Assembly: GCA_900543845.1 (NCBI GenBank)
Contig: UQTD01000002.1
Coordinates: forward strand, 7,284-71,283
Length of the DNA: 64,000 bases
Reading direction: 5' to 3'
Source: an uncultured Collinsella sp.
GTDB lineage: Bacteria; Actinomycetota; Coriobacteriia; Coriobacteriales; Coriobacteriaceae
The first letter of the stretch is position 1. Every line of letters starts with the position of its first letter. The notes beneath the pieces were generated by a model. That model saw nothing but the letters and a program-made list of their open reading frames with translations, was not told where the DNA came from and ran no database searches. This document shows positions 1,323-56,553 of this stretch, one piece after another. The position numbers and the translations under genes are program-made.

Positions 1323-1549
1323 GCGCCCCGTGCAAGGCGCTTTATTCAGGTACAGTAATTGCAGGGTGCCTTTATTTAAGTAAAGCTACAAAATGAGTAT
1401 TCTTATCCGCTCATCGCATATTTTAGGACGCTCATCGAGTATTTCATCGAAATAGATGAATACTTCTTAGACTTCCGATAGGCTAATGGATGTATTTATT
1501 AGCTGAGATTCCGCACAGTTTTGCGGGGTCTCAACAGTTGGGAGGGATC

Positions 1550-3352
1550 ATGAGGTTTACTCATCCTGTCAACACGCTCAAAAAGCTCGGCTGCGGCCTT
1601 GCGTTTGGAGCAGCGGCCATCATGGCCATGCCGACTTCGGCGCTCGCCTGCACCCAGATCTACATGGGTAGCAAGCTCACGGCAGACGGCAACACGTACT
1701 ATGGCCGTTCCGAGGATTTCGGTCCGCGCTATGTCAAGCACTTTGGCATTGAGCCCGCACACAAGGACGGCAACGAGTACACATCGGTCGAGTCCGGTTT
1801 TGAGTACAAGTCCAAGGGCGCAACCTACCGCTACACTTTCGTTCGCGACAACCCCTCGCAGTGGGAAGATCGCTACGACGCATATTCCGAGGCCGGCATC
1901 AACGAGAAGGGCGTCTCCTGCTCTGCCACGTTGAGCACCTCCTATAACGAGAAGGCCGAAGAGGCCGACCCCATCACCGAGGAGACTGGCATTGGCGAGT
2001 ACAGCTATGCCAGCGTCATCCTGGGCGAGAGCGCCACGGCCCGCGAGGGCGTCGAGCTCATCGGCAGCCTGATCGACGAGCAGGGCGTCTGCTCCAACGA
2101 CCAGATCATCATCGCCGACAGCACCGAGACCTGGCTGTTCGCCGCGCTTTCCGGCCATCAGTGGATTGCCATGAGGCTCGCCGATGACATCGCCTCGCTC
2201 AACCCCAACATCGGCAACCTCACCTATGACGTCGACCTCGACGACACCGAGAACTGTCTCCATTCCGAGGGCATCGAGTCCATGCCTAAGGAGAAGGGCT
2301 TTGCCGAGTACACTGACGGCAAGTTCGACGTCGCCAAGACCTACGGCGAGGAGATCGGCGAGGCCGGTATGCACCAGTGGTCGCGCTATATCCAGGGTCG
2401 CGATTACTTCATGGCCCCGCTGGCTGAAGGCACTGACTACGAGATCGTCAAGGACGAGCGTGAAGACGCTCGCGCCACGACCGGCGCCCTGGTCCACGAG
2501 ATGCAGCCGCTGTTCTTCCAGCCCGGCAAGTCCGACTGGAACACCTTTGAGATGATCCGCAGCTTCGCTGCTCGCGGCGAGAATGTCGCCGGTCTCAACG
2601 CCAACACCGACGGCGCCTATGCTATCGGCTCCAACCGCAACACCGAGATTCACACCTTCCAGATCCGCCACGGCATGGACCCCGAAATCGCGACCATCCA
2701 GTGGGAGATGCTCTCCAACGCCGAGTTCTCCGTCGCTATCCCCCTCTACTCCGCACTGCTCACCGAGGTCAGCCCCTACTTCAGCGATCAGGATGTCTCC
2801 TTCGATCACTGCGAAGAGGAAGACGTTGTAAACAACGAGGAGCCCAAGAACTCCATCAACTACGTCCTCATGGACATCAACACGCTCGCCTATGAGAATC
2901 GCGATCACTGCGCTACCGGCGTCCGCGCCTACCTCGACGCCCTGCAGAAGGAGCTCATCGAGCAGAACCTGACCGTCGACGAGGCCATGCAGGCCGCCGA
3001 GAACACCGAGGCCCGCACCGCCCTGGCCAACAAGGCCGGCAAGGCTGCCACCAAGAACACCTACCTCAAGTGCAAGGCCATGCTCGAGGAAATGCGTGAC
3101 TACCTCAAGGAGGGCGACTTCTCCGAGGAGTTCGTCCCGAGTGACTACGATGCCGACAACGACTGCCTAGTCGAGTCCATCACCTATGCCGACGAGGCCC
3201 TCTCGGATGAGGATGTAGCCGAGCCCGAAGTCGAAGAGGAAAAGGCCACCGAGGAGAAGTCCGAGGGCAACAACATGGCCGCCATGGCCGTTGGCGCCGT
3301 CGTCGTCATCGGTGTCTGCGGCTTCGTGCTCTATCGTCGCAAGAAGGCCTAA
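1550..3352 (+). CDS. Peptidase family C69-like dipeptidase, secreted with a C-terminal transmembrane anchor
   Basis: RBS GGGAGGG precedes ATG 1550. A signal peptide is followed by the N-terminal nucleophile motif A-L-A-C-T-Q-I-Y-MGS..DGNTYYGRSEDFG, typical of C69 dipeptidase A (Cys after signal cleavage). The C-terminus is AVVVIGVCGFVLYRRKKA (TM plus basic tail, no LPXTG). Confidence 0.7.
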   Translation: MRFTHPVNTLKKLGCGLAFGAAAIMAMPTSALACTQIYMGSKLTADGNTYYGRSEDFGPRYVKHFGIEPAHKDGNEYTSVESGFEYKSKGATYRYTFVRDNPSQWEDRYDAYSEAGINEKGVSCSATLSTSYNEKAEEADPITEETGIGEYSYASVILGESATAREGVELIGSLIDEQGVCSNDQIIIADSTETWLFAALSGHQWIAMRLADDIASLNPNIGNLTYDVDLDDTENCLHSEGIESMPKEKGFAEYTDGKFDVAKTYGEEIGEAGMHQWSRYIQGRDYFMAPLAEGTDYEIVKDEREDARATTGALVHEMQPLFFQPGKSDWNTFEMIRSFAARGENVAGLNANTDGAYAIGSNRNTEIHTFQIRHGMDPEIATIQWEMLSNAEFSVAIPLYSALLTEVSPYFSDQDVSFDHCEEEDVVNNEEPKNSINYVLMDINTLAYENRDHCATGVRAYLDALQKELIEQNLTVDEAMQAAENTEARTALANKAGKAATKNTYLKCKAMLEEMRDYLKEGDFSEEFVPSDYDADNDCLVESITYADEALSDEDVAEPEVEEEKATEEKSEGNNMAAMAVGAVVVIGVCGFVLYRRKKA

Positions 3353-3368
3353 GGCCCTCACGTCCTAA

Positions 3369-3405
3369 GGGAGGGCAAGACGGTGCGAGCGGTCTTGCCC
3401 TCCTG
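3369..3405 (+). terminator. Hairpin after the C69 peptidase gene (possible terminator, no clear U-tract)
   Basis: Stem gagggcaagac .. gtcttgccctc lies immediately 3' of the stop at 3350-3352. Confidence 0.3.
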
Positions 3406-3556
3406 ACCCGTTATCTGACCGGTGGGAAACACCGCGGGAAACACTGCTGAAATCTTTTCAAAAAAGATTTCCCCGCACACACTTTGCTGTGCTATAGTGC
3501 AGCGCAACAGCAACTAGGTGCGACCGCGCCATGGCATCACGAAAGGAGCCACCAAC

Positions 3557-3625
3557 ATGAAGAACACGATGAAGTCTCTCAACAACTGGTGGTGGCGTGA
3601 TGCGAATACGATCGGTCGACAGTGA
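3557..3625 (+). CDS. Tryptophan-rich leader peptide (22 aa, MKNTMKSLNNWWWRDANTIGRQ) of a transcription attenuator
   Basis: RBS GAAAGGAG sits 7 nt upstream of ATG 3557. There are three consecutive TGG codons at 3587-3595. A terminator hairpin follows 36 nt downstream. The downstream gene is a putative Trp-type ECF S component. Confidence 0.55.
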   Translation: MKNTMKSLNNWWWRDANTIGRQ

Positions 3626-3661
3626 GTCCCTCACGCCTGTTTTTGCGCTCTAGGTGATTGG

Positions 3662-3695
3662 AAGGCCTCCGGTTTCGACCGGGGGCCTTTTTCTA
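3662..3695 (+). terminator. Attenuator terminator (aggcctccgg-tttcga-ccgggggcct followed by TTTTTCT)
   Basis: GC-rich 9-10 bp stem plus U-tract located between the leader peptide stop and the S-component start. Segment 3611-3619 (cggtcgac) can alternatively pair with 3674-3680 (tcgaccg), forming an antiterminator. Confidence 0.6.
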
Positions 3696-3771
3696 TCTCG
3701 AGCCCAATCGCATTCGCATCACGCGCCTCCGCTTTCTTCTCTTGCACTTCCCTTCCGAAAGGATTTTCACC

Positions 3772-4344
3772 ATGTCTCAGAACACCACCACCGCCCAGCC
3801 CCGCACCGTCCAGACCGCCGACCGCGGCAAACTCGACGTCCGCGCCCTCGTCTTGCTCGCCATCCTGCTTGCCGCCGGCTTCATCCTCAACTTCACCGTC
3901 GGCAAGGCCATCTCCGGCATCTCGGGCGGCATGATCAGCCCCGAGTTCATCATCTCGGCCTTCTGCCTTACCATCCTGGTCGTTCGTCCCAACATTGGCC
4001 AGGCGCTCATCATCGGCCTCATCTCGGCTGCTGTAATCCAAATCACCACCACCTCGCCGTTCGTCGATTTTGCCGCCGAGGGCATCGCCGCCATGCTCAT
4101 GGCCCTCATTGTCAACGCTGCTGCCAAGGACGGCCAGGTTAAGCCCGCCGTCGCCATCGTCGCAACGTTCGTGACCACCTTTGTCTCGGGCGTCATCTTC
4201 ATGGTCATCAAGATGGCCATGCTCGGCGTGGTGGGCGAGCTCGCCGCTGCCATGCTGCCCGTCGTCGCTATGACCGCCGTGTTTAACGCCATTCTGGTCG
4301 GCGCTCTCTATCTGCCCATCCAGAAGGCCCTGAAGCTCAACTAA
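3772..4344 (+). CDS. ECF transporter substrate-specific (S) component, putative tryptophan-specific (TrpP-like)
   Basis: About 190 aa with 5-6 TM helices. It lies immediately upstream of the ecfA-ecfT genes. RBS GAAAGGAT precedes ATG 3772. Trp specificity is inferred from the WWW leader attenuator and TrpP-like size and architecture. Confidence 0.6.
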   Translation: MSQNTTTAQPRTVQTADRGKLDVRALVLLAILLAAGFILNFTVGKAISGISGGMISPEFIISAFCLTILVVRPNIGQALIIGLISAAVIQITTTSPFVDFAAEGIAAMLMALIVNAAAKDGQVKPAVAIVATFVTTFVSGVIFMVIKMAMLGVVGELAAAMLPVVAMTAVFNAILVGALYLPIQKALKLN

Positions 4345-4377
4345 CCCGCTCGGCTTTACGAGCCACCCTATCTCGGC

Positions 4378-4438
4378 GTTCATTCGTCGCTCGCGTACCC
4401 AAGTACGCTTCGCTCCTCTTTCGCGCCAACCTGGGGCC
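4378..4438 (+). repeat. REP-like intergenic repeat, copy A (core gttcattcgtcgctcgcgtacccaagtacgcttcgctcctctttcgcgccaacctggggcc)
   Basis: The core recurs at 23495-23562 (same orientation) and 33802-33863 (reverse complement). It contains the palindrome gcgtacNNNNgtacgc. Confidence 0.6.
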
Positions 4439-4556
4439 CCTCGTAAAGCCGTCTCCGTGCTTCACCACCAAAGACTGTCCCAAACAACTAGCTTTTGGGG
4501 ACGCTCTTAAACGACTAGTCATGTAAGAACGTCCCCGATGACTATGAAAGGTATCC

Positions 4557-6308
4557 ATGGAAACGATCATCAACGTCGACGATGTCTCGTTCTCCCGTGG
4601 CACGCAGACCGAGCAGGCGCTTAAGCATATCTCGCTCGGCGTGAACAGGAGAGATTTTATCGGCATTATCGGGCCTTCGGGCGCCGGCAAGTCCACACTT
4701 GCCGCCTGCCTGTCGGGAGCCGTACCCCACCATAACACCGGCACGTTCTTTGGCTCCGTCACTGTCGACGGCAACGACACCTGTGAAGTTTCGCTCACCG
4801 ATGTGTCGCAGATCGTCGGCAGCGTGTTGCAAGACATCGACACGCAAATGGTCGCCTCGGTCGTCGAGGACGAGATGCTTTTTGGCCTGGAGAACTTTGG
4901 CGTTCCGCACGACCAGATCGAGCAGCGCGTGAGCGAGACGCTCGAGACCGTCGGCATCAGCGACCTGCGCGACCGCGAGATCGCCACCCTCTCAGGCGGC
5001 CAAAAGCAAAAGGTTGCCATCGCCGCCATCCTCGCTATGCGTCCGCGTGTGCTCGTGCTCGACGAACCCACCGCGGCGCTCGACCCCGCCAGCTCCACGC
5101 TGGTCTTCGAGACCCTACGCGAGGCCAACCGCGCACTCGGCATCACCATCGTCGTCGTTGAGCAAAAAGTCGCCCTGCTTTCGGAGTATTGCAACCGCGT
5201 GCTCGTGCTCAATCATGGCGAAATCGCGCTACAGGGCGAGCCGCACGAGGTCTTCGCGCACGCCGATGAGCTCCGCGCCATCGGCGTCGATTGCCCGCGC
5301 GTCACGCGCATTTTCAACAGCCTCGAGGCCGATGGCCTGGCCAGCGGCACTCCCTGTTTGGATGTTGATGAGGCCGAGCGCCTGATTACGGGCATCGTCG
5401 ACCCCGCACACGCAAGCAGCGACACTCAGGCACCCGCCGGCTCACCGCACGCACCGTCGTTGCGCCCGCACGCCAAGGACGCCGAACCCGTGCTCACCTT
5501 CGATCACGTTGAGTTTGCCTATCCCAATGGCGGCGCCGCCGTCCACGACCTCAACCTGACCCTCTATCCCGGCGAGCTCGTGGGCATCGTCGGTCAAAAC
5601 GGCGCCGGCAAGACCACGCTCACCAAGCTGCTCACAGGCCTGCTTAAGCCCGCCTCGGGCAGCGTGCGCGTCACGGGACTGGATACCGCAGCCGTTCCCA
5701 CAAGCCGCATCGCCCGCGAAGTCGCAACCCTCTTCCAAAACCCCGACCGTCAGATCTGCAAGGACACCGTGCTCGACGAGGTCGCCTTTGGCCTGGAGCT
5801 TGCCGGCATCGACCGTGCCGAGGCGCTGCGTCGCGCCCAGCTCGTCATCGACCGCTTTGGCTTGCCGGCCGACGAGGCGCCCTTCTCGCTCTCGCGCGGT
5901 CAGCGCCAGATGGTGGCACTCGCCTCCGTCGTGGTCGTAGAGCCCAAAATCGTGGTGCTCGACGAGCCCACGAGCGGCCTTGACTACCGCGAGTGCATGA
6001 CCGTGATGGAAACGGTGCGCACCATGGCCGAGCGCGGCTGCGCTGTAATCATGGTCTGCCACGACATGGAAGTCGTCTCCGACTTTGCCGAGCGCATCGT
6101 AGTCATGGCCGACGGCCGCATCCTCGAGCGCGGCCGCACGCACGAGCTGTTCTCGGACATCGAGCTCATGCAGCGCGCCTACGTTGAGCCGCCCCAGGTC
6201 ATAGAGCTTTCTCGTCGCCTGGCATCCTCCGTCTCTCCCGCCTTTGCACAGGTGAGCGAGGTCACCGATATCGTTCGCATTACCGAGGAGATGGTCCACC
6301 GTGGTTAA
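4557..6308 (+). CDS. ecfA: ECF transporter ATPase, fused tandem EcfA-EcfA (two ABC ATPase domains)
   Basis: 583 aa. Has two Walker A motifs (GPSGAGKST and GQNGAGKTT) and two LSGGQ-type signatures (LSGGQKQK, LSRGQRQM). Confidence 0.85.
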   Translation: METIINVDDVSFSRGTQTEQALKHISLGVNRRDFIGIIGPSGAGKSTLAACLSGAVPHHNTGTFFGSVTVDGNDTCEVSLTDVSQIVGSVLQDIDTQMVASVVEDEMLFGLENFGVPHDQIEQRVSETLETVGISDLRDREIATLSGGQKQKVAIAAILAMRPRVLVLDEPTAALDPASSTLVFETLREANRALGITIVVVEQKVALLSEYCNRVLVLNHGEIALQGEPHEVFAHADELRAIGVDCPRVTRIFNSLEADGLASGTPCLDVDEAERLITGIVDPAHASSDTQAPAGSPHAPSLRPHAKDAEPVLTFDHVEFAYPNGGAAVHDLNLTLYPGELVGIVGQNGAGKTTLTKLLTGLLKPASGSVRVTGLDTAAVPTSRIAREVATLFQNPDRQICKDTVLDEVAFGLELAGIDRAEALRRAQLVIDRFGLPADEAPFSLSRGQRQMVALASVVVVEPKIVVLDEPTSGLDYRECMTVMETVRTMAERGCAVIMVCHDMEVVSDFAERIVVMADGRILERGRTHELFSDIELMQRAYVEPPQVIELSRRLASSVSPAFAQVSEVTDIVRITEEMVHRG

Positions 6309-7047
6309 CGTCATCGACTATATGCCGGGCGATACGCTGCTGCATCGTCTGAACCCCGTCGTCAAACTGGGCCTCGCCGCCGCCATCATCATCGGCATCT
6401 TTTTGTCCGACACCTACGTGGCGCTGCTGGGCTTTTTGGCACTCACCCTTGCACTGGGTGCCTATGCCGGCGTCGTCGACCGTCTGCTCTCGCTGCTCAA
6501 GTTGCTGATTCCGCTCGCGCTTATCATGCTGGTGCTCCAGTTGGCCTTTATGCGTGATGGCAACGTGGTGTGGGGTTTCATCACCGACACGGGCCTCATT
6601 ACCGGATCGAAGGCCTGCCTGCGCCTGCTGGGCGTGGCGCTGCCACTCATCCTCATGCTCATGGTGACCAAGCTCAACGACCTCGCCAACGCTTGCGTCG
6701 AGGTGCTGCACGTGCCATATCGCTATGCCTTCACCTTTACCACGGCGCTGCGTTTTGTGCCGGTATTTGGCCAGGAAATGAACGCCATCATGGAGGCGCA
6801 GACCGCACGCGGCGTCGAATACGACACTAAGAATCCCGTCAAGAAACTCAAACTCATGCTGCCGCTGTGTGTGCCGCTGCTTATCTCGAGCGTGGGCAAG
6901 ACCGATGCCACCGCGCTTGCCGCCGAGCAGCGCGGCTTCTATCTGCGTACGCGCGCCAGCTCGTACAAGCGCTACCCCATCAAGGGCCTAGACATCGCCG
7001 TACTCATCATCAGCATCGCCCTCATCGCCACCGGCTTCCTGTTCTAG
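6301..7047 (+). CDS. ecfT: ECF transporter transmembrane (T) component, CbiQ/EcfT family
   Basis: 248 aa polytopic membrane protein that overlaps the ecfA stop by 8 nt, in the canonical ecfA-ecfT order. Confidence 0.8.
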   Translation: MVNVIDYMPGDTLLHRLNPVVKLGLAAAIIIGIFLSDTYVALLGFLALTLALGAYAGVVDRLLSLLKLLIPLALIMLVLQLAFMRDGNVVWGFITDTGLITGSKACLRLLGVALPLILMLMVTKLNDLANACVEVLHVPYRYAFTFTTALRFVPVFGQEMNAIMEAQTARGVEYDTKNPVKKLKLMLPLCVPLLISSVGKTDATALAAEQRGFYLRTRASSYKRYPIKGLDIAVLIISIALIATGFLF

Positions 7048-19199: not shown

Positions 19200-19347
19200 A
19201 GAGAATCCCTTCGTGAGGCACATCTGTTGCAACTTATTGTGATACAGGATTGTGGCACACATGTTTCCAGCATATTGCTGCATTTTTTAAACGTTATATA
19301 CGAATACTCTTGTTTGGTAAAGTGCAACGTGATAGGGTCTTTACCAC

Positions 19348-19500
19348 TTGATAGAGGCGCGGGCACGAAGAGCCGCGGGCGAGCCGGCAGGCTTTGACCC
19401 CGTGGGGAGGCGAAACCCGCCGAACTGGGTTTTTCGGGCACGAACAACCTGGTGGGCCTGTGGGAAACACCCACAGGACTGTCTGCAGCAATGCGGGAGC
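19348..19500 (+). ncRNA. Lysine riboswitch (L-box) in the 5' leader of the lysA-dapA operon
   Basis: The 5' motif GATAGAGGCGC and 3' motif GGGAGCGCTATC match the conserved L-box ends. Several GC helices lie between them. It sits in the 380-nt leader of a lysine biosynthesis operon. Confidence 0.55.
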
Positions 19501-19577
19501 GCTATCCGGACATTGGGTCCACGCTATGCGGATTCGATGCGCAGATGGCGCCGTCTGGATAGCGAGGTTTACGGGAC

Positions 19578-21887
19578 ATGGCATTGACCCCCAACGAGGC
19601 ATATGCGGCCAAGCAGCCGTTTGTGGACAAGGAGACACTCGAGCATATCGTCGAGCAGTTCCCCACGCCGTTTCATCTATACGACGAGGCGGGCATCCGC
19701 CGCAACATGCAAGAAGTGCGCGACGCCTTTGCATGGAACCCGGGCTTTAAGGAATACTTTGCCGTCAAGGCCAACCCCAACCCGGCGCTCATCTCCATTC
19801 TCAACGAATACGGCTGCGGCTGCGATTGCTCGAGCTATACCGAGCTCATGATCGCCCGCTCGCTGGGCATCACGGGACACGACATCATGTTCTCTTCCAA
19901 CGACACGCCGGCTGCCGACTTTGAGCTCGCCAACAAGCTGGGTGCCATCGTCAACTTTGACGACATCAGCCACATCGAGTTCTTTGAGCGTGTTGCGGGG
20001 CCCATCCCCAAAACGGTCAGCTGCCGCTTTAATCCAGGCGGCCTGTTCCAGCTCTCCAACGGCATCATGGATAACCCCGGCGACTCCAAATACGGCATGA
20101 CCACCGAGCAGCTCTTTGAGGCTTTCCGCATGCTCAAGGCCAAGGGCGCCGAGAATTTTGGCATCCATGCCTTCCTTGCCAGCAACACCGTCACCAACGA
20201 CTACTACCCCAAGCTCGCGCGCATCCTCTTTGAGCTTGCCGTGCGCCTGGAGCGCGAGACCGGTGCACATGTCGCCTTCATCAATCTGTCCGGCGGCGTC
20301 GGCATCCCCTATCTGCCCGAGCAGCAGGCCAACGACATTCACGCCATCGGCGAGGGGGTGCACGCGGCCTACGACGAAATCCTGGTTCCCGCCGGTATGG
20401 GCGATGTGGCCATCTGCACCGAGATGGGCCGCTTTATGATGGGGCCCTACGGCTGCCTGGTCACCAAGGCTATCCACGAAAAGCAGATCTACAAGGACTA
20501 TATCGGTGTCGACGCAAGCGCCGTCGATCTGATCCGTCCTGCCATGTACGGCGCCTACCACCACATTACGGTAATGGGTCAGCCGGGTGGCGCCGACAAG
20601 ACCGCGGCGCCTGTCACAAACACGTACGACATTACGGGCAATCTGTGCGAGAACAACGACAAGTTCGCCATCGACCGCGAGCTACCGCAGATCGACATGG
20701 GCGATGTGCTCGTGATCCACGATACCGGCGCGCATGGCTACTCCATGGGCTACAACTACAACGGACGGCTGCGCTCCGCCGAGGTGCTGCTGCGCCCCGA
20801 TGGCTCGGCCGACCTCATCCGCCGCGCCGAGCGCCCGGGCGATTACTTTGCCACACTCGACGTGCTGCCGAGCGGCCGAGAACTGCTGGCCAAGTCGCGC
20901 GCCGAAAGTGCTCGCCGTCGCGCCCAAGACGAGCGCCTGGCAGTCGCCGCCCAATGGAACAAACGCATCCAGATCGCGGACGCGAAGGAGAAGAACATGG
21001 ACATCCGCAATCTTGAGGGCTCGATCGTCGCCCTTGTTACGCCGTTTAAAAAGGACGGCAGCGTCGACTTTGACGCGCTCGAACGCCTTATCGATTTCCA
21101 CCTGCAAAACGGCACCGATGCCATCCTCACCCTGGGCACCACCGGCGAGAGCGCCACGATGACCGATGACGAGGACAACTCCGTCGTCGCCGCCGTGGTC
21201 AAGCATGTTGCAGGACGCGTCCCCGTCATCGCCGGCTCGGGCTCCAACTCCACGCAGACGATGCTCACCAAGTCGCTCACCTACCAGGGCTTGGGAGCCG
21301 ACGGCCTGCTGCTCATCACCCCCTACTACAACAAGTCCAACGAAGAGGGCATCTATCAGCACTTTAAGACCGTCGCCGATGCTGTGGACATCCCCTGCAT
21401 CCTGTACAACATCCCCGGCCGCTGCGGCTGCGGCATCAGCGAGCGCAACGTAGAGCGCTTGGCCGCGCACCCCAACATCATGGGGATCAAGGAAGCCTCG
21501 GGCAACGTCGCCTACGCGGCCAAGATTGCCCACCTGCTGTCCGACGACTTCCGCATGTACTCGGGCGAGGACGCCCTCACCGTGCCGCTCATGAGCCTGG
21601 GCGCTTCGGGCACCATCAGCGTGTGGGCCGACGTTCAGCCGCAGCTCGTGCACGACATGTGCCGCGCCTATCTGGACGGCGACGTGGAGCGCGCCCGCGA
21701 TATCCAGATTGCCGGCCAGCCGCTCATCAATGCCCTCTTTAGCGAGGTCAACCCCATTCCCGTCAAGGAAGCACTCGCCCAGATGGGTATGATCGAGGCA
21801 AACTACCGCATGCCGCTGTGCCCCATGGCAGACGACACGCGCTCCGCACTTACCGATGCTCTGAAGGGAGCTGGTCTGCTTGATTAA
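19578..21887 (+). CDS. lysA-dapA: In-frame fusion (or stop-less junction) of diaminopimelate decarboxylase LysA and 4-hydroxy-tetrahydrodipicolinate synthase DapA
   Basis: The first ~430 aa are an Orn/DAP/Arg decarboxylase (FAVKANPNP.., CENND). From residue ~474, MDIRNLEGSIVALVTPF.. is a full DapA. An internal RBS GAAGGAGAA plus ATG at 20997 is in the same frame, with no stop between the two parts. Confidence 0.7.
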   Translation: MALTPNEAYAAKQPFVDKETLEHIVEQFPTPFHLYDEAGIRRNMQEVRDAFAWNPGFKEYFAVKANPNPALISILNEYGCGCDCSSYTELMIARSLGITGHDIMFSSNDTPAADFELANKLGAIVNFDDISHIEFFERVAGPIPKTVSCRFNPGGLFQLSNGIMDNPGDSKYGMTTEQLFEAFRMLKAKGAENFGIHAFLASNTVTNDYYPKLARILFELAVRLERETGAHVAFINLSGGVGIPYLPEQQANDIHAIGEGVHAAYDEILVPAGMGDVAICTEMGRFMMGPYGCLVTKAIHEKQIYKDYIGVDASAVDLIRPAMYGAYHHITVMGQPGGADKTAAPVTNTYDITGNLCENNDKFAIDRELPQIDMGDVLVIHDTGAHGYSMGYNYNGRLRSAEVLLRPDGSADLIRRAERPGDYFATLDVLPSGRELLAKSRAESARRRAQDERLAVAAQWNKRIQIADAKEKNMDIRNLEGSIVALVTPFKKDGSVDFDALERLIDFHLQNGTDAILTLGTTGESATMTDDEDNSVVAAVVKHVAGRVPVIAGSGSNSTQTMLTKSLTYQGLGADGLLLITPYYNKSNEEGIYQHFKTVADAVDIPCILYNIPGRCGCGISERNVERLAAHPNIMGIKEASGNVAYAAKIAHLLSDDFRMYSGEDALTVPLMSLGASGTISVWADVQPQLVHDMCRAYLDGDVERARDIQIAGQPLINALFSEVNPIPVKEALAQMGMIEANYRMPLCPMADDTRSALTDALKGAGLLD

Positions 21888-51504: not shown

Positions 51505-54500
51505 CTATGCGCTCTTACGGGAGCGCACAAACCACGCACCAATAGCCGCAAGGCACACGATACCGACAACAACACCGGTAACAGCGACCGGGTTAACGCC
51601 GCCTCGCCCATCCAAAGCACCCTTGCGTGATGCGGCAGCAGCGGACGTCGTTTTCGAACCGGAAGACTCGTCGGAGCCGGACTTCTTATCGGACTCGCCC
51701 TTGTTGGCATCCACATTCTGCGAAGCAACAACTTCCTGCATTCCAGAACCGCCCTGCTTATCGCCGGAGCCATCGCCCCTCTGCGAACCGGTCGGCATGA
51801 CCGCGGGCGTCGAATTCTTCGTCGGGACCGTAGGAACGGGTACCTCGGGCGTCACGGGTTTTATCGAGCCGCCCGGTTCGACGACACCGGCTTTTACGCC
51901 ACCGATCTTGGACCAGCTCACACCGGACCCTGCGGACTTATAGGCCGAAAGGGATCGTAAGGCCTGCACCGTCGCAAGCGCGTTGGCATTGCCGGGCTTA
52001 CCGTCGGATTCCATGGTATGGGCGTAGCCCTTGCCGTCGGCGACCTCGTAGGCGCAGATTGCAGTAATCAGGCTATTCGCACCCGTTGCAAAACCGTTCT
52101 TGGTATTTACGGGATCCTTGCCAAGAGCCACAAGAGCGAGCAGCACCTGGGCATTCGACTCAACGGACCCAAAGTCGCAAAGGCCGTTCATCTGACCCCT
52201 AAGGAAGCCGAGCGCATTGTCGACAGCAGATGCAACAGAAGGTTGGCCATTCGAGGCCAGGGCAACGGCGCACGCGTCATTATCGACATAGGGCGCAAGC
52301 GCCTGAAGTGCCATAGCGGTCATATCGACGTTGCTCGCACCGCCCGCATCGATGGTGAAACCGCCGTCGGGATTCTGGAACGAAAGCAGCGCGCAAACAA
52401 GCTGAGCACGTGTCCAAGAAGAGCCGGACGCACGCAGCACCTCATTCGAAATACCCGCCTCGTCAAGGGCGATCAGTGCATAGACCACGTTGTTCGCCGA
52501 AGCCACAAGATCTTCGTGAGAGCAAATGTCGGCAATGAGATCCACGCCATCGAAAGAGGTAATATCCTCGCCAAGCGCGGTTAGCGCAAGCGCAACTCGC
52601 TCGCAATCAGTCACCTTGGCGGTGTTGCCCGACCACTCGGCCTTATGAACGGTAAGGGACTTCTTGTAATTCGCGATCAGTGCGTCGTCAATCTTGCGCC
52701 CCGACGTTGCGAAGGCGTAAATCTCCCATTCTTGACCATAGGTGTACGCATCGATCGTACGGTTGGCGTCAAAGTACTTGGCAGCGGAAAGGGTACCTTC
52801 GTCGGCCTTTGCCTCGTTATCCGGTGAGGCAACGATTCCGTCAACCGTAATCTCAAAGGAGATGGCCTGGGCACCGGCAGTCTGATCGATCGGCGTACCG
52901 GTCACCGTATAGGTACCGGCCTTGTTCGCCGTCAGGACATAGGCGCCGCTCGCCACAAACAAGCCGTCGTCAGGAGCACCGTCAACGTGCTTCCAATCAC
53001 CAAGAGCGCGTCGGTCGATACTCACGGCATCCGAGGCATCCCGACCTTCCTCGGTCGTCACACTCCATTTCATACCGGGCTCGGAAACGCTCCAGCCCTC
53101 GACATCGTTCTCACCCGTATAACCCAGGTTGAGTTCGACGGTCTTACCGGCCTTAACGGACGCGGGGACATTCGTGATTGTCACCGATTTCAGTGGGTTC
53201 CGGTAAGCGTAGATAACTTCTCGCTTACCCGAGGAGATGACGCTGCCGTCCTGGTTTTCGACCGTCGCCTCAAACGTTGTCTTACCGGCCTTATACGGCG
53301 TAAAGCCAATCTCGCCACTCGTAGTGTACTCGGCAACCGCAGAATCACTCGAGGTGACCGTGTAGCAAGCGCGATCACTCGCGTTTTCGGGTCCCACAAC
53401 CGGCGCAGCCTTATCGGTCAGGAAGGCGCCTTTGGCAAGCGGATTGCGACCGTGCAGATAGACAGTCTCGCCGTTCTCGTTATAGCCAAGCGAGACGCTC
53501 GTCGCTGGCACATAGCTCGACGTGACCGTCACGCTCTTGGAGGCGATATCGAGATTTGCGCGTGAAGATACCCGAATCGTGGCCTCGCCCGGCTTCTTAA
53601 AATAAAAGCAGGCGGATCCGGGATTGGAGTAAAGTACGTTCGCAGGCGTGCCGACAAAGCGAAAACGCGCATAGGAAACAGGAGTGTACTCGCCCTCGGC
53701 GGCATCGGTGTAATGAACACGGACTTCAAGATTCTTGACCTCGGAACCCGCAACCGCAATAGTGCCGCCCGTCACGTTTGCGCCGTTATACCAAATCTGA
53801 AAATCATCGATCGGTTTGGACACTGCCTTGACCACAACGGTCGCGACGTTCTCGGTAGTGCCGTCGTCCTTGTGGAGTGTGGCGGTTACCGTACCTACGG
53901 CGTCGTTATACACGTGCAGCAGGCCCGTTTCCTCGTTAACGGCGATATCACCCCTGTTGGCATCTGGGGTACCCCAGGTCACCTTGGCATCCTTGGGCAG
54001 GCCATCGAGCTCAAGCGTGCCCGAAACGCAGGCGGCACCGTTCTCGCCCACCACAACGTCGTCGGGAGACGGGCAGAGCACACCATCGGCAGCAGTTACG
54101 GTCTTGCCGGTACGGGCAGACGTGAACTTCACCTCGTACTTATTGCTTGCAGTAGGGCTCTCAGAAGACTCGTGGTCTAGATTCTCACCGAAGTGCGGAA
54201 AGCCATCAGACCCCATACCCCACACGCTACCGTTTTCACCACGATTGACGTTGAGATTTTCGACAAAGGTCGCCGTCTTCATGTCATCGGTATCGACAGC
54301 ATAGGAGTTGACGAGCGCGTCCGAGGGAAAGACGACCTTATTGGTAAGGCCCTCCTGCCAGTACGCATTGATGAGCTGTCCGGAGTCGTAGCTCGCAAAG
54401 AGCACGCCGCCGGTCGAAGCGGCGGTGGACATGCAATTGGAGATCACGCCGCCCTGGAGCGTACGGCCAAAGCCAGCAACGCCCTTACCCGTAACGGACG

Positions 54501-56034
54501 TGGAGCAATTAATGACAGAGCCCTTTACCTGATTGCCAAGCGGACCAAACGACTTGCCGTCCATGGCCTGTTTGAGCTCACCGGCAAAAGAGACATTCTG
54601 GATGACGCCGGTGGAGCCAACGCTCGCAAACAGAGACTTAACGCCTCCCCCGTTGTCGAAGGTAATAGTGTGGCCCTGCCCGTCAAACGTGCAATTGAGC
54701 TCGCCTGTGGGTCCGAAGAACCATTCGTCATCAATCACAATGTCGTTATCGAGCACATAGTAGTTGCTCGCATCCTTGACGTTCATATACATGAAGTCAT
54801 CCTGCGACGAGATATGCTTGACGCTCTCCGGCTGGGCGACGGGAGCCGTCGGCTTCTTTTTCTCAAGCGCATCCGAGGCGTCATCGAGCTTTTTGACCGC
54901 CGCATTTACATCGGACTGAGATGCATCGTCGTTATCGTTGACGATTTTGGCGTCAGCAAGAGCAGCGGCAAAGGCGGACCAGGAATCCGTTGTGTAGTCT
55001 GACTCATTGAGCGCCTCGGCGGCCGTGATAGCCGCGACGAGCGCGTCCTTATTGACAACGACGGGGGCAGAGCCGCTCACAAGCAAGGGCAGGCCACCAT
55101 TGGACACCCAGGAAAAGCCAGTCGACGGCGTATCGGTATTGAGCACGTCGAGTGATTTAGCAGAAGAGAGGTCGGCGGCTTTAGCCGCGTTTCCCTTGTT
55201 AAAGCCGCTAGGGTTGTTTATCTCGGCAGGCGAAAAACCTACGGTATATAGGCAGTTCAACAGTGATCCGGCCTGAGCCTCACCGACCAGGCCACCGTTC
55301 ATCTCAACGCCTGAGCCGGCAAAATAGGAATTGACGATCTTTCCGGACGTCATACCGCCGACCAGGCCACCGGCACAGCCCATCCAGCCGATAAGGTTCA
55401 CACTCGCCGTGGACCAGCACATCTGGATGGTGCCAGAAAGTGTCATGGCAATGGAGCCCACATTGTCGGTGCTCGAGACCGAGCCCGTCACGCCCAGGTT
55501 CTGAATCGAGCCGGCCACATTATTCGCAACGGCCTTGCCGTTAATGGTGACCGTGTGGCCCTGGCCATCCAGGGTGCCGTCAACGGTCTCGATCTGCTGA
55601 TCAGTGCCCATCGAAATATTCGCGCCGAGCTTGACGGTCGCACCCGCCTCAATGGTCTCAGGCATATCGGCCGCATCGTTGACGACCACCGTCTCGCCCG
55701 AGTGCACTACCTTAGCGAAAGAACCTGCTTCTTCGACCTGTGCAGCCGGTACCGTTTCCTCGGACGCAATAGATTGCACGGCAACACCGGAGCTTTCCTG
55801 CTCCTGCGTGCTGCCGCCATCTGCCATGCCGGTTTCAGCGTCGGCAGAAGGCTCATCTTCATTAGGCCTGCCCTGCCCATCATCGCCCGCCGCGGTGACC
55901 TGATCGGCCGCCGCGGCTACGCCCGTGCTCACCTCCTCGGCAAACGCGGTCATTCCCGTGCTCGAACTGGCAAAGATAAACGCCATGAGCACGACGAGGA
56001 ATTTCCTCGTACCTGTTCGGATGTTGTTGAGCAT
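51505..56034 (-). CDS. Large cell-surface protein (1509 aa): signal peptide, parallel beta-helix (pectate-lyase-like) region, Ig-like repeats, prenyltransferase/squalene-cyclase-like alpha/alpha-toroid domain, C-terminal TM anchor
   Basis: RBS GGGGGAAAGG precedes ATG 56034 (signal peptide MLNNIRTGTRKFLVVLMAFIFASSS). Gly/Asn-rich repeats indicate a beta-helix. The QW-type motif SFQNPDGGF and a ~330-aa alpha-helical module match terpene-cyclase/prenyltransferase repeats. The C-terminus is AVTGVVVGIVCLAAIGAWFVRSRKSA. The track start at 56499 is too long. Confidence 0.65.
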   Translation of the reverse strand: MLNNIRTGTRKFLVVLMAFIFASSSTGMTAFAEEVSTGVAAAADQVTAAGDDGQGRPNEDEPSADAETGMADGGSTQEQESSGVAVQSIASEETVPAAQVEEAGSFAKVVHSGETVVVNDAADMPETIEAGATVKLGANISMGTDQQIETVDGTLDGQGHTVTINGKAVANNVAGSIQNLGVTGSVSSTDNVGSIAMTLSGTIQMCWSTASVNLIGWMGCAGGLVGGMTSGKIVNSYFAGSGVEMNGGLVGEAQAGSLLNCLYTVGFSPAEINNPSGFNKGNAAKAADLSSAKSLDVLNTDTPSTGFSWVSNGGLPLLVSGSAPVVVNKDALVAAITAAEALNESDYTTDSWSAFAAALADAKIVNDNDDASQSDVNAAVKKLDDASDALEKKKPTAPVAQPESVKHISSQDDFMYMNVKDASNYYVLDNDIVIDDEWFFGPTGELNCTFDGQGHTITFDNGGGVKSLFASVGSTGVIQNVSFAGELKQAMDGKSFGPLGNQVKGSVINCSTSVTGKGVAGFGRTLQGGVISNCMSTAASTGGVLFASYDSGQLINAYWQEGLTNKVVFPSDALVNSYAVDTDDMKTATFVENLNVNRGENGSVWGMGSDGFPHFGENLDHESSESPTASNKYEVKFTSARTGKTVTAADGVLCPSPDDVVVGENGAACVSGTLELDGLPKDAKVTWGTPDANRGDIAVNEETGLLHVYNDAVGTVTATLHKDDGTTENVATVVVKAVSKPIDDFQIWYNGANVTGGTIAVAGSEVKNLEVRVHYTDAAEGEYTPVSYARFRFVGTPANVLYSNPGSACFYFKKPGEATIRVSSRANLDIASKSVTVTSSYVPATSVSLGYNENGETVYLHGRNPLAKGAFLTDKAAPVVGPENASDRACYTVTSSDSAVAEYTTSGEIGFTPYKAGKTTFEATVENQDGSVISSGKREVIYAYRNPLKSVTITNVPASVKAGKTVELNLGYTGENDVEGWSVSEPGMKWSVTTEEGRDASDAVSIDRRALGDWKHVDGAPDDGLFVASGAYVLTANKAGTYTVTGTPIDQTAGAQAISFEITVDGIVASPDNEAKADEGTLSAAKYFDANRTIDAYTYGQEWEIYAFATSGRKIDDALIANYKKSLTVHKAEWSGNTAKVTDCERVALALTALGEDITSFDGVDLIADICSHEDLVASANNVVYALIALDEAGISNEVLRASGSSWTRAQLVCALLSFQNPDGGFTIDAGGASNVDMTAMALQALAPYVDNDACAVALASNGQPSVASAVDNALGFLRGQMNGLCDFGSVESNAQVLLALVALGKDPVNTKNGFATGANSLITAICAYEVADGKGYAHTMESDGKPGNANALATVQALRSLSAYKSAGSGVSWSKIGGVKAGVVEPGGSIKPVTPEVPVPTVPTKNSTPAVMPTGSQRGDGSGDKQGGSGMQEVVASQNVDANKGESDKKSGSDESSGSKTTSAAAASRKGALDGRGGVNPVAVTGVVVGIVCLAAIGAWFVRSRKSA

Positions 56035-56553
56035 CCTTTCCCCCTTGGTCTGGAAGATCACTACCCCAATAAGAATCGAGGCCGACCATGTAAAGGGAAA
56101 CGGGACACAGCGAAACGCCCGCACCTGACAGCATGCGGCAATGCCCCCGCATCGCATACGGGATGCTTGGAGCAAATATGATGTCATCTTCTGCTCACCG
56201 GAATCCAGCGGCTCCCAAAAGACCCTCGACACGAGAAGACCATGGGCAAGTAATCTGACTCGCGGGACAGCCCCGCACACAGTAACCGCCTTGCCTGGGA
56301 TTCCCACCCAGTTCCCTTTTATGCGCCAAGCGCACCCATGGTCCGGCTTCTTTTCAAACAGCATGTAATTGTATGGAAGACCAGACAACGAGCGTCCGCC
56401 GATATCACGCACACATAATTCACCGAAAATGTGGTTGAAAGTCCGCCAGGGCAACGACGAGACCTTTATCCGAAATGCAAAACGGGGCCGCAGCATCATT
56501 GCTACGACCCCGCCCGCTCAAGCAAACTCTCATTCCGAGACACTGCTGATCAG

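Follow-up and report, generated by a model that had tools for sequence, protein, structure and literature searches.

Panina et al. 2003 are said to have described control of trpP (yhaG) by T-box(Trp) elements and by TRAP in Firmicutes. Among the Actinobacteria, classical trp attenuators containing two or three UGG codons have been described ahead of the trp operons and of trpS in Corynebacterium and Streptomyces, and leaders with three consecutive tryptophans (WWW) occur in this group (PMC1262725). In Streptomyces lividans the leader peptide TrpL1 has the sequence MFAHSTRNWWWTAHPAAH (PMC8079986), while trpL of Corynebacterium glutamicum has three tandem Trp codons and trpP is a separate, leaderless gene in that species; the trpL-fbr type of change known there puts a premature stop at the third Trp codon (PMC11995493). 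Here we describe a WWW leader in 64,000 nucleotides of DNA from an uncultured Collinsella sp. (contig UQTD01000002.1, positions 7,284 to 71,283; this whole stretch is called the window below), where it stands before the gene for a TrpP-like S component and the other genes of an energy-coupling factor (ECF) importer, and where it is very probably a leader-peptide attenuator that senses Trp-tRNA.

Anatomy of the leader and the importer operon

All features of the locus are on the + strand. A trpL-like open reading frame (ORF) of 22 codons, MKNTMKSLNNWWWRDANTIGRQ followed by its stop (3557..3625; ATG at 3557, UGA at 3623-3625), is preceded by a Shine-Dalgarno (SD) box AAGGAG (3543..3548) located 8 nt ahead of the ATG, and by sequence reading its three regulatory Trp codons TGG TGG TGG are at 3587-3595. 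Behind the ORF is an intrinsic terminator (3662..3694), with a stem 3662-3673 / 3678-3689, a UUCG loop and a U-tract UUUUUCU running to 3694; the segment A3663-U3673 / A3678-U3688 forms 11 pairs including one G-U, and is extendable by A3662:U3689. The importer genes follow, and encode a TrpP-like ECF S component of 190 aa with a full-length Pfam TrpP match (3772..4344, with an SD box AAGGA read at 3759..3763), a fused EcfA-EcfA' ATPase of 583 aa (4557..6308; TIGR04520 and TIGR04521) and an EcfT transmembrane component of the CbiQ family (6301..7047; profile matches). An earlier interpretation made from the letters alone (the sequence-only reading) had pointed out the 22-codon ORF with its ribosome binding site and three TGG codons, the GC-rich hairpin plus U-tract behind it and the S component followed by ecfA-ecfT; all of these were recovered, with the additions that the ATPase is a fusion protein and that the TrpP match lies under its cutoff. 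The single TGGTGGTGG in 64 kb is by itself non-significant (0.5 expected, and at least one found in 35/100 shuffles of the window), and the significance of the WWW leader comes from its context and conservation, and not from the occurrence of the motif alone.

Conservation of the leader ahead of TrpP-like genes

The search of genome contigs with the S protein keeps the best 80 matches and returned only near-identical Collinsella loci (all 80 from Collinsella, 96-99% identity), and the sequence diversity came from protein look-ups and from one metagenome DNA pattern. Loci anchored by the S protein were found without regard to the leader and hence give an unbiased view of it. Among these, the SD-led leader is kept in 79/79 informative Collinsella loci, the sole apparent exception (L063) being truncated at a contig end, and also in six further lineages with 77-85% identity of the S protein, including an Olsenella uli-like genome; the leaders of these six distant lineages read MSRIARTSMNWWWRSLSAVGRS, MINFSNNSVMNWWWRDAYTVGRL, MNKSAMSTSNNWWWRDAFSVGRL, MFQSMNNNWWWRNSISLGRW, MSAMQNLPMNWWWRDANTVGRL and MNRIATNIARTSMNWWWRDSQAVGRS, each up to its stop codon. 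NWWWR is invariant and the distance from WWW to UGA is nine codons (eight in two Collinsella loci), the N-terminal part of 8 to 16 codons is free in sequence and length, and CGGUCGA near the end of the leader and the spacing to a downstream segment, region 2, are preserved. Conservation of the leader in related genomes had been proposed as a check in the sequence-only reading, and the outcome is favourable: the SD-led WWW ORF, its distance to the UGA and the terminator are kept in all informative protein-anchored loci, and a WWW leader stands ahead of orthologous S genes down to 41% S-protein identity.

Only the last TGG, GGTCGGTCGA and the stop, along with the spacing, were prescribed in the metagenome pattern. 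It gave 105 matches, which comprise 82 with WWW, 22 chance matches in high-GC contigs that are without leader features, and one cut by the start of its contig. The total leader set consists of 151 loci, 117 of them unique. A TrpP-like S gene with 41-99% identity to that of the window is located within 1 kb of 104/117 unique leaders, the remaining 13 are followed by a C-terminal remnant of the S gene before ecfA, and the leader was found ahead of any other gene in 0/117 cases. In one Collinsella-like lineage with the leader MNSIQNNLMNWWWRDANTVGRL (L165, L131, L163 and ten similar loci), the leader, the terminator and the post-terminator segment called region 5 below are intact, the S gene is deleted to its last codons (..PIKKALKVED and stop) before ecfA, and ecfA itself is apparently frameshifted; judging from its sequence, this type of locus appears to be decaying.

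When 30 representatives (<95.5% identity) were compared in gapless alignments, an SD box at 5-9 nt and an in-frame start codon were present in 29/30 leaders even though the N-terminal codons diverge, and the frame is open from the AUG to the fixed UGA in every lineage. This argues against the alternative that the ORF is untranslated, with UGGUGGUGG and its surroundings forming a protein- or tRNA-binding RNA element or a structural leader which controls the terminator. Such an element would fit with the Trp codons lying within a predicted helix with the SD-AUG spacer, and with much of the conservation being at the nucleotide level. A TRAP site consists of (G/U)AG repeats, however, and none were seen on reading the sequence, nor is there an Rfam match, and we therefore think it very unlikely that the ORF is not translated.

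Covariation of helix 1:2 and the terminator

Region 1 (GGCGUGA, 3594..3600) takes in the final two bases of the third Trp codon, the Arg codon and the bases beyond, and it pairs as helix 1:2 with region 2 (UCACGCC, 3631..3637), located 6-12 nt past the stop. This helix is found in the compensatory versions GGCGUGA:UCACGCC, GGCGCGA:UCGCGCC and GGCGCAG:CUGCGCC. One of the positions that vary, the third base of the Arg codon, changes synonymously and is accompanied by a corresponding change on the non-coding side of the helix (pair types include CG 12 / UA 11 / UG 1 and GC 22 / AU 6, with some of the AU due to a 1-nt register shift in one class). Counted jointly, helix 1:2 and the terminator have 93% of cells paired, compared with at most 59% when the partners are slid, and seven pairs changed on both sides versus at most two with slid partners, and none of 500 shuffles reached the observed values. 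For the terminator stem alone, 99.3% of cells are paired in the 30 representatives and four pairs are changed on both sides, with the top of the stem invariant and its base covarying.

The spacer between SD and AUG (segment 0, GCCACCA, 3548..3554) is complementary to the Trp codons (UGGUGGC, 3589-3595), and this pairing is part of the minimum free energy (MFE) fold. The spacer is GCCACCA-like in leaders with Arg CGU and GCGCCAG-like in those with Arg CGC, and is complementary to the Trp codons in 28/30 representatives; we speculate that the pairing may act as a pause hairpin or as a hairpin at the start site.

Candidate T-box elements ahead of homologous operons in Eggerthellaceae

A second protein search was seeded with the S protein that is the most remote of those behind a leader (43% identity to that of the window) and led to proteins of the Eggerthellaceae, and in four of their loci (L195-L198) the gene order is S-ecfA-ecfA'-ecfT. 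No WWW ORF was found upstream of these four S genes. All four have a full-length T-box match (RF00230; L195 2062-2302, L196 2131-2377, L197 2124-2377, L198 2056-2296), with scores of 61-75 bits (E 1.8e-11 to 5.6e-15); the Rfam gathering score is 93, and standard annotation would thus miss these candidate T-boxes. Their specifier position shows a conserved AAAUGG, where UGG stands for Trp, and they also contain the motif GGUGGCACCGC and a terminator. The finding of a WWW leader and a probable UGG T-box before homologous importer operons provides what is so far the best available evidence on the substrate, as a putative independent link to Trp, and on this regulatory evidence the importer is predicted to bring in tryptophan, or a direct precursor, when Trp is limiting. 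The sequence-only reading had put forward a ribosome-stalling Trp attenuator of a TrpP-type ECF S component, together with the prediction of its substrate, and both are supported by the comparative data and by the T-box matches. The role of TrpP as a transporter has been questioned in C. glutamicum (PMC11995493).

The T-box is a sensor of uncharged tRNA, and its apparent use by the sister family is one of several points against a TnaC-like mechanism, in which the nascent leader peptide would sense free tryptophan in the ribosome and arrest at the stop, and charging would not be the signal. The fixed distance from WWW to the stop, which is always UGA, and the conserved C-terminal G-R are compatible with such an arrest peptide. 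However, a row of three Trp codons is the signature of a charging sensor, there is no C-terminal Pro, and variable residues follow WWW (RD, RN, RS, RG). GGUCGA does not vary even at synonymous positions, an indication that selection acts on the RNA rather than on the peptide. In addition, the control point is an intrinsic terminator and not a Rho site, induction by Trp would have the wrong sign for an importer, and neither the W...D...P-stop spacing nor the Rho-dependent terminator of the TnaC type is found, and hence we consider a TnaC-like sensor highly improbable.

A proposed mechanism with a putative antiterminator

We therefore favour, with considerable confidence, a leader-peptide attenuator sensing Trp-tRNA and controlling a Trp-related ECF importer, which would operate as follows. 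Transcription would start about 50 nt ahead of the 22-codon ORF. With ample Trp-tRNA, the ribosome would pass WWW and reach the UGA, where its footprint would cover the invariant UCGGUCGA (3612..3619, codons Ile/Val-Gly-Arg), GAGUCCC (3624..3630, which overlaps and follows the stop codon) and the start of region 2; these bases flanking the stop would be blocked from engaging the terminator sequence, and the GC-rich hairpin (3662-3689) with its U-tract would therefore form and end the transcript near 3692. When Trp-tRNA is scarce, the ribosome would stall on UGG UGG UGG (3587-3595) and mask region 1, and region 2 would not be locked in helix 1:2; the freed region 2 and the stop-proximal bases could then form the antiterminator by pairing with the spacer and both terminator arms, allowing RNA polymerase to continue into the importer genes, with import of tryptophan or a direct precursor as the result.

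The antiterminator is plausible and consistent with the predicted folds, albeit not demonstrated, and we infer its exact pairs. At its centre GAG (3624-3626) would pair with CUC (3667-3669) in the 5' arm of the terminator, and pairing of this GAG:CUC type was seen in 13/14 folds of the segment from stop to terminator, including that of the window. The same architecture was obtained from independent single-sequence folds in 22/25 lineages. When the transcript was cut before the 3' arm and a ribosome was placed on the third Trp codon, 50-80% of the bases of the 5' arm paired upstream, and their partners clustered between +1 and +7 relative to the stop (GAGUCYY, mean pairing probability ~0.7), with less pairing from -15 to -1. 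Forcing the CUC to pair upstream in the full transcript resulted in one long hairpin in 22/25 lineages, where positions -13 to -4 of the leader (GGUCGGUCGA) pair with the terminator loop and 3' arm (in the window UCGGUCGA at 3612-3619 with UCGACCGG at 3675-3682), while in the 5' arm the top is bound by the last codon and the bottom by GAGUCYY. UCGGUCGA and GAGUCCC are thus the candidate outer and inner 5' strands of the antiterminator. The alternative to region 1 as the partner of region 2 is the spacer, through CGCCUG (3634-3639) and UAGGUG (3651-3656), and region 2 paired better with its own spacer than with permuted spacers in all but 8 of 5000 permutations (no phylogenetic correction).

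The 5' strand of the antiterminator spans -13 to +14 around the stop and region 1 begins inside the third Trp codon. With the known sizes of ribosome footprints, the whole 5' strand is expected to be within the footprint of a ribosome at the stop, and region 1 within that of a ribosome on WWW. The 5' arm of the terminator always has one U inside the CUC, which pairs with G or A in the terminator and would pair with the A of GAG in the antiterminator, and this U and the invariant top of the terminator are indirect signs that fit with dual pairing. The sequence-only reading had already proposed an antiterminator in this area, and had placed cggtcgac at 3611-3619, overlapping the leader stop; it is actually located at 3613-3620 (CGGTCGA at 3613-3619) and does not overlap the stop. 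Its complement TCGACCG is indeed present inside the terminator (3675-3681), but consists of the loop and 3' arm rather than the 5' arm, and the CGGUCGA:UCGACCG pairing appears in the best non-terminator fold of 22/25 lineages, but there it makes up only the outer part, and with an energy no better than that of shuffles.

In equilibrium folds with a masked ribosome the terminator was always retained, which leaves a kinetic switch, of the kind operating in other attenuators, as the only option. A comparison of duplex energies between cognate and non-cognate long strands was powerless in this GC-rich RNA. We also looked for a Rho loading site in the C-rich untranslated region (UTR), where mean C is 0.40 versus 0.22 for G, but this was inconsistent across lineages and is given low weight.

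A number of results weigh against the proposed attenuator, or against parts of it. The non-terminator state has a mean of -29.8 kcal/mol versus -38.0 kcal/mol for the terminator state, and is thus about 8 kcal/mol less stable. The segments from stop to terminator folded no better than dinucleotide shuffles (z +1.3 to -1.9, with the window at +1.3), and with the 3' part of the leader shuffled, the forced non-terminator state had a mean z of -0.76 (shuffles on average 0.76 sd worse), with the window at +1.1, where the shuffles were better. The combination of MAFFT and RNAalifold gave no consensus antiterminator for the stop-to-terminator segment, because the spacer does not align, and both outer strands of the antiterminator are invariant, which means that covariation is not scorable there. 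Most of the diverse leaders were retrieved with the pattern that fixes GGTCGGTCGA, the stop and the spacing, and the invariance of these features is unbiased only in the protein-anchored loci. An Rfam scan of 3000-5000 with E up to 10 matched zero leader families (e.g. Trp_leader), the Rfam Trp leader model being proteobacterial. Finally, the match of the S protein of the window to Pfam TrpP (PF17099), which covers profile positions 2-168 of 169, scores 23 bits and is under the curated cutoff of 27.2 bits, and in an NCBIfam search zero models named the S protein.

A post-terminator complement of the leader

A further segment downstream of the terminator (region 5, 3704..3724) forms a 21-nt inverted repeat with the leader (3595-3615), with 90% (19/21) of the bases complementary; in relatives the repeat is 24-28 nt long. 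Region 5 is present in 16/25 representatives, its duplex with the leader having an energy between -33 and -45 kcal/mol (z -2.4 to -5.9 versus shuffled UTRs), and it is missing in about a third of the lineages, those with short UTRs. Three covarying versions were found (...GAUGCGAAU...:...AUUCGCAUC..., GAUUCGC:GCGAAUC and GGUGUCGAAACGG:CCGUUUCGGCC), with 80% of cells paired versus at most 46.5% when slid and seven changes on both sides, and 0/500 shuffles reached the covariation score. The pairing is also part of the MFE fold of the whole 5' UTR (-101 kcal/mol, z -3.9), and UCGGUCGA (3612-3619) belongs to it in the read-through RNA. As region 5 is only present in read-through RNA, it could act only after the decision on termination.

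This would be compatible with an attenuator in two stages, in which region 5 re-pairs with the leader codons behind WWW once the ribosome has left and closes the leader domain, and which adds to the classical model. Possible purposes include limiting, on mature mRNA, repeated translation of a leader rich in Trp and the stalling of ribosomes, stabilising the 5' end, providing an RNase III site, or serving as a trans target for the terminated leader RNA, which is abundant. Besides the energies, the covariation and the MFE fold, this idea is favoured by the tolerance of G-U pairs between leader and region 5, as expected for RNA, and by the trans-acting attenuator RNAs known in Sinorhizobium (PMC6614838). 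On the other hand, its absence from about a third of the lineages means that region 5 is not essential to the switch, masking it leaves the predicted accessibility of the SD of the S gene unchanged, and the MFE fold lacks a three-way junction hiding the leader SD, and we rate such a second stage as a reasonable possibility, but one we would not bet on. Control of S-gene translation by region 5 was rejected, as SD accessibility was unchanged on masking in 13/14 lineages, and the three-way junction, which would involve CCUCC after region 5, was unsupported in the full-UTR MFE fold. A rather more tentative suggestion, based on the predicted pairings, is that region 5 may provide a built-in memory or reset, where the mature mRNA would shut off or throttle translation of a leader that consumes Trp and stalls ribosomes (the SD-AUG spacer also pairs with the Trp codons), or where processing or stability would differ depending on the continued presence of a stalled ribosome. 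If true, such a memory or reset step is not described for classical attenuators; the region 5 pairing is the part of this locus most likely to hold something new, and may show the fate of attenuator leaders after read-through.

Inverted repeats may also act in DNA, and invertible promoters are common in gut bacteria. The leader and region 5 could in that case flank an invertible segment that flips the terminator in phase variation, and the ~21-28 bp inverted repeats do flank an 88-bp segment containing the terminator. However, the middle segment was inverted in 0/89 protein-anchored loci, no recombinase gene adjoins the locus in the window or in relatives, the spacing of the arms differs from ~90 to 150 bp between lineages, one arm is inside a conserved reading frame, and the differences tolerated between the arms are of the G-U type, leaving hardly any likelihood for a DNA-level switch.

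The S component and the importer operon

TrpP was the sole Pfam family matched in 14/14 S homologues (best E 3.1e-06), and precomputed PF17099 annotation is present on many S homologues. The AlphaFold model of the S protein has six helices with a pLDDT of 68 (moderate confidence), and its top Foldseek matches were RibU, PanT, ThiT and the S-component chains 4huq_S and 4hzu_S, with TM scores of 0.5-0.56 and weak E-values. The ecfAA' and ecfT genes are directly 3' of the S gene in both the window and its relatives. The transporter is nearly free of Trp (0/190 residues in S, 0/583 in EcfAA' and 1/248 in EcfT, a total of 1 in 1021), compared with a mean of ~0.8% Trp in the long ORFs of the window, and a Trp-free core is found in 213/240 fetched S homologues, which is a weak pointer to synthesis during Trp shortage. 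A Trp-free S protein would also ease fluorescence-based ligand-binding assays.

Some relatives have a second TrpP-like S gene of 181-185 aa (L083 3639-4184, L085 3890-4435, L089 2383-2940), which in L083 is located between the first S gene and ecfA and is 45% identical to the first; the substrate of this paralogue may differ, and no trace of a second S gene was found in the window. In L146, the S protein encoded behind the WWW leader resembles a chimera of both paralogues. A strongly structured spacer of 212 nt (4345-4556; MFE -70.6 kcal/mol) separates the S gene of the window from ecfAA'; it has a long hairpin with GGCTTTACGAG (4353-4363) and CTCGTAAAGCC (4437-4447) in its arms, and may set a difference in mRNA stability between the S gene and the ECF module. 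The Trp codons UGGUGGUGG (3587-3595) are also complementary to early Thr codons of the S gene, ACCACCACC (3784-3792), and to CACC ahead of its AUG (region 3766-3774). (C)ACCAUG is common before the S-gene starts of relatives, and CACC occurs in only 2/79 of the other SD-AUG spacers in the window. The leader might contact the S-gene start site in this way.

Promoter region and further features of the window

The likely promoter of the leader has an extended -10 box TGcTATAGT (3490..3498), based on sequence reading and on its recurrence in distant relatives, and from this we infer a transcription start near 3505, some 50 nt 5' of the leader ORF. In distant relatives the -10 sequences TATAGT, TAAAGT or TATTGT are kept at the equivalent place, accompanied by the TGn extension (class A) or by a -35 box TTGCGC (Olsenella-like lineages); a simple sigma-70 scan gave zero promoter matches at the leader. 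Further upstream is a 23-bp AT-rich palindrome, GAAATCTTTTCAAAAAAGATTTC (3449-3471), with 10-bp arms and spanning the -35 position, and a direct repeat of GGGAAACAC (3424-3432 and 3436-3444). The sequence-only reading had reported both and had raised the possibility of an additional operator. The palindrome is confined to the C. aerofaciens group (47/161 loci), where its arms are fixed and its centre reads CAA, TAA, CGAA or CAAA, and it was rejected as a conserved operator on account of this restriction and of its varying loop length. Several lineages have GAAAC or GTTTAC half-sites with a spacing of ~11-12 nt, about 40-70 nt 5' of the -10 box (3424-3447 in the window, with a matching position in L162, L147, L083, L089, L091 and L094; examples are two copies of GGGAAACAC in the window, GAAACGTGTTCGAAAC and GTAACGAACCGTTTAC), which may be a transcription-factor site on the leader promoter.

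Upstream of the locus, a perfect 12-bp GC-rich hairpin without a U-tract (3370-3403) follows the gene for a C69 peptidase (1490-3352), and is probably the transcript end of this gene or a stabiliser. Elsewhere in the window there is a lysine riboswitch (19344-19512, + strand, 79 bits) upstream of a 769-aa ORF (19578-21887), and a cobalamin riboswitch (56228-56354, - strand, 47.5 bits) upstream of a very long ORF listed as 51505-56499, the true start of which is probably downstream of this riboswitch.

Comparison with known systems

The mechanism proposed here is that of a classical attenuator, and it is the controlled gene and the lineage that are new. In the literature, the coverage of which was incomplete, there was no report of a leader-peptide attenuator before an ECF TrpP gene or in the Coriobacteriia, although this is absence of evidence only. 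The Collinsella leader would add an ECF importer to the biosynthesis and synthetase genes that are under leader-peptide attenuation in the Actinobacteria, and together with the Eggerthellaceae loci it would represent a switch between two RNA mechanisms, WWW leader and T-box, within one bacterial class. The two putative sensors of tRNA-Trp charging give a strong and testable substrate prediction for a family that is left "hypothetical" by current models, in a group of abundant human-gut Coriobacteriia (Collinsella and relatives) where the tryptophan metabolism of the gut is medically relevant.

With regard to other importers, the sequence-only reading had considered the pairing of a leader peptide with an importer unusual, but it is less so than claimed, as there are precedents before amino-acid transporters. 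These share with the Collinsella leader a peptide rich in the cognate amino acid ahead of its transporter, but concern another amino acid, classical ABC importers and other phyla or families, and none is associated with an ECF S component. The tnaC-tnaAB operon of E. coli likewise has a short upstream ORF with a critical Trp, and the operon includes a Trp permease, but TnaC senses free Trp via the nascent chain, blocks Rho and induces with Trp, whereas in the Collinsella leader the Trp codons are in tandem, the terminator is intrinsic and the sign is expected to be the reverse. The T-box and TRAP systems of Firmicutes trpP and the candidate T-box of the Eggerthellaceae share the TrpP-family S component as target, the shortage of charged tRNA-Trp as physiological signal and the read-through of an intrinsic terminator. 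They differ in what is sensed, as the T-box binds uncharged tRNA and TRAP binds free Trp, whereas in Collinsella a translating ribosome would read the Trp codons.

The closest likeness is with classical trpL, both of E. coli and of Corynebacterium and Streptomyces, where it is located before trpE or trpS. Shared features are a short ORF behind an SD box with UGG codons in tandem (three in Collinsella, a number also found in S. meliloti, C. glutamicum and the TrpL1 of S. lividans, MFAHSTRNWWWTAHPAAH, with NWWW as a common motif), a helix joining the Trp-codon region to the region just past the stop, a GC-rich intrinsic terminator with U-tract, and a stop placed such that a ribosome could mask the proposed antiterminator strand; with this putative antiterminator, mutually exclusive pairings would be a further likeness. 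The Streptomyces leaders are leaderless transcripts, whereas in Collinsella some 50 nt of predicted 5' UTR, which include an SD box, precede the leader ORF. The Collinsella element also differs from classical trpL in controlling an ECF importer operon rather than biosynthesis or tRNA synthetase genes, in a putative antiterminator that would invade both terminator arms from one continuous leader segment spanning the stop, in an SD-AUG spacer complementary to the Trp codons, and in the long post-terminator complement of the leader that has been added in most lineages.

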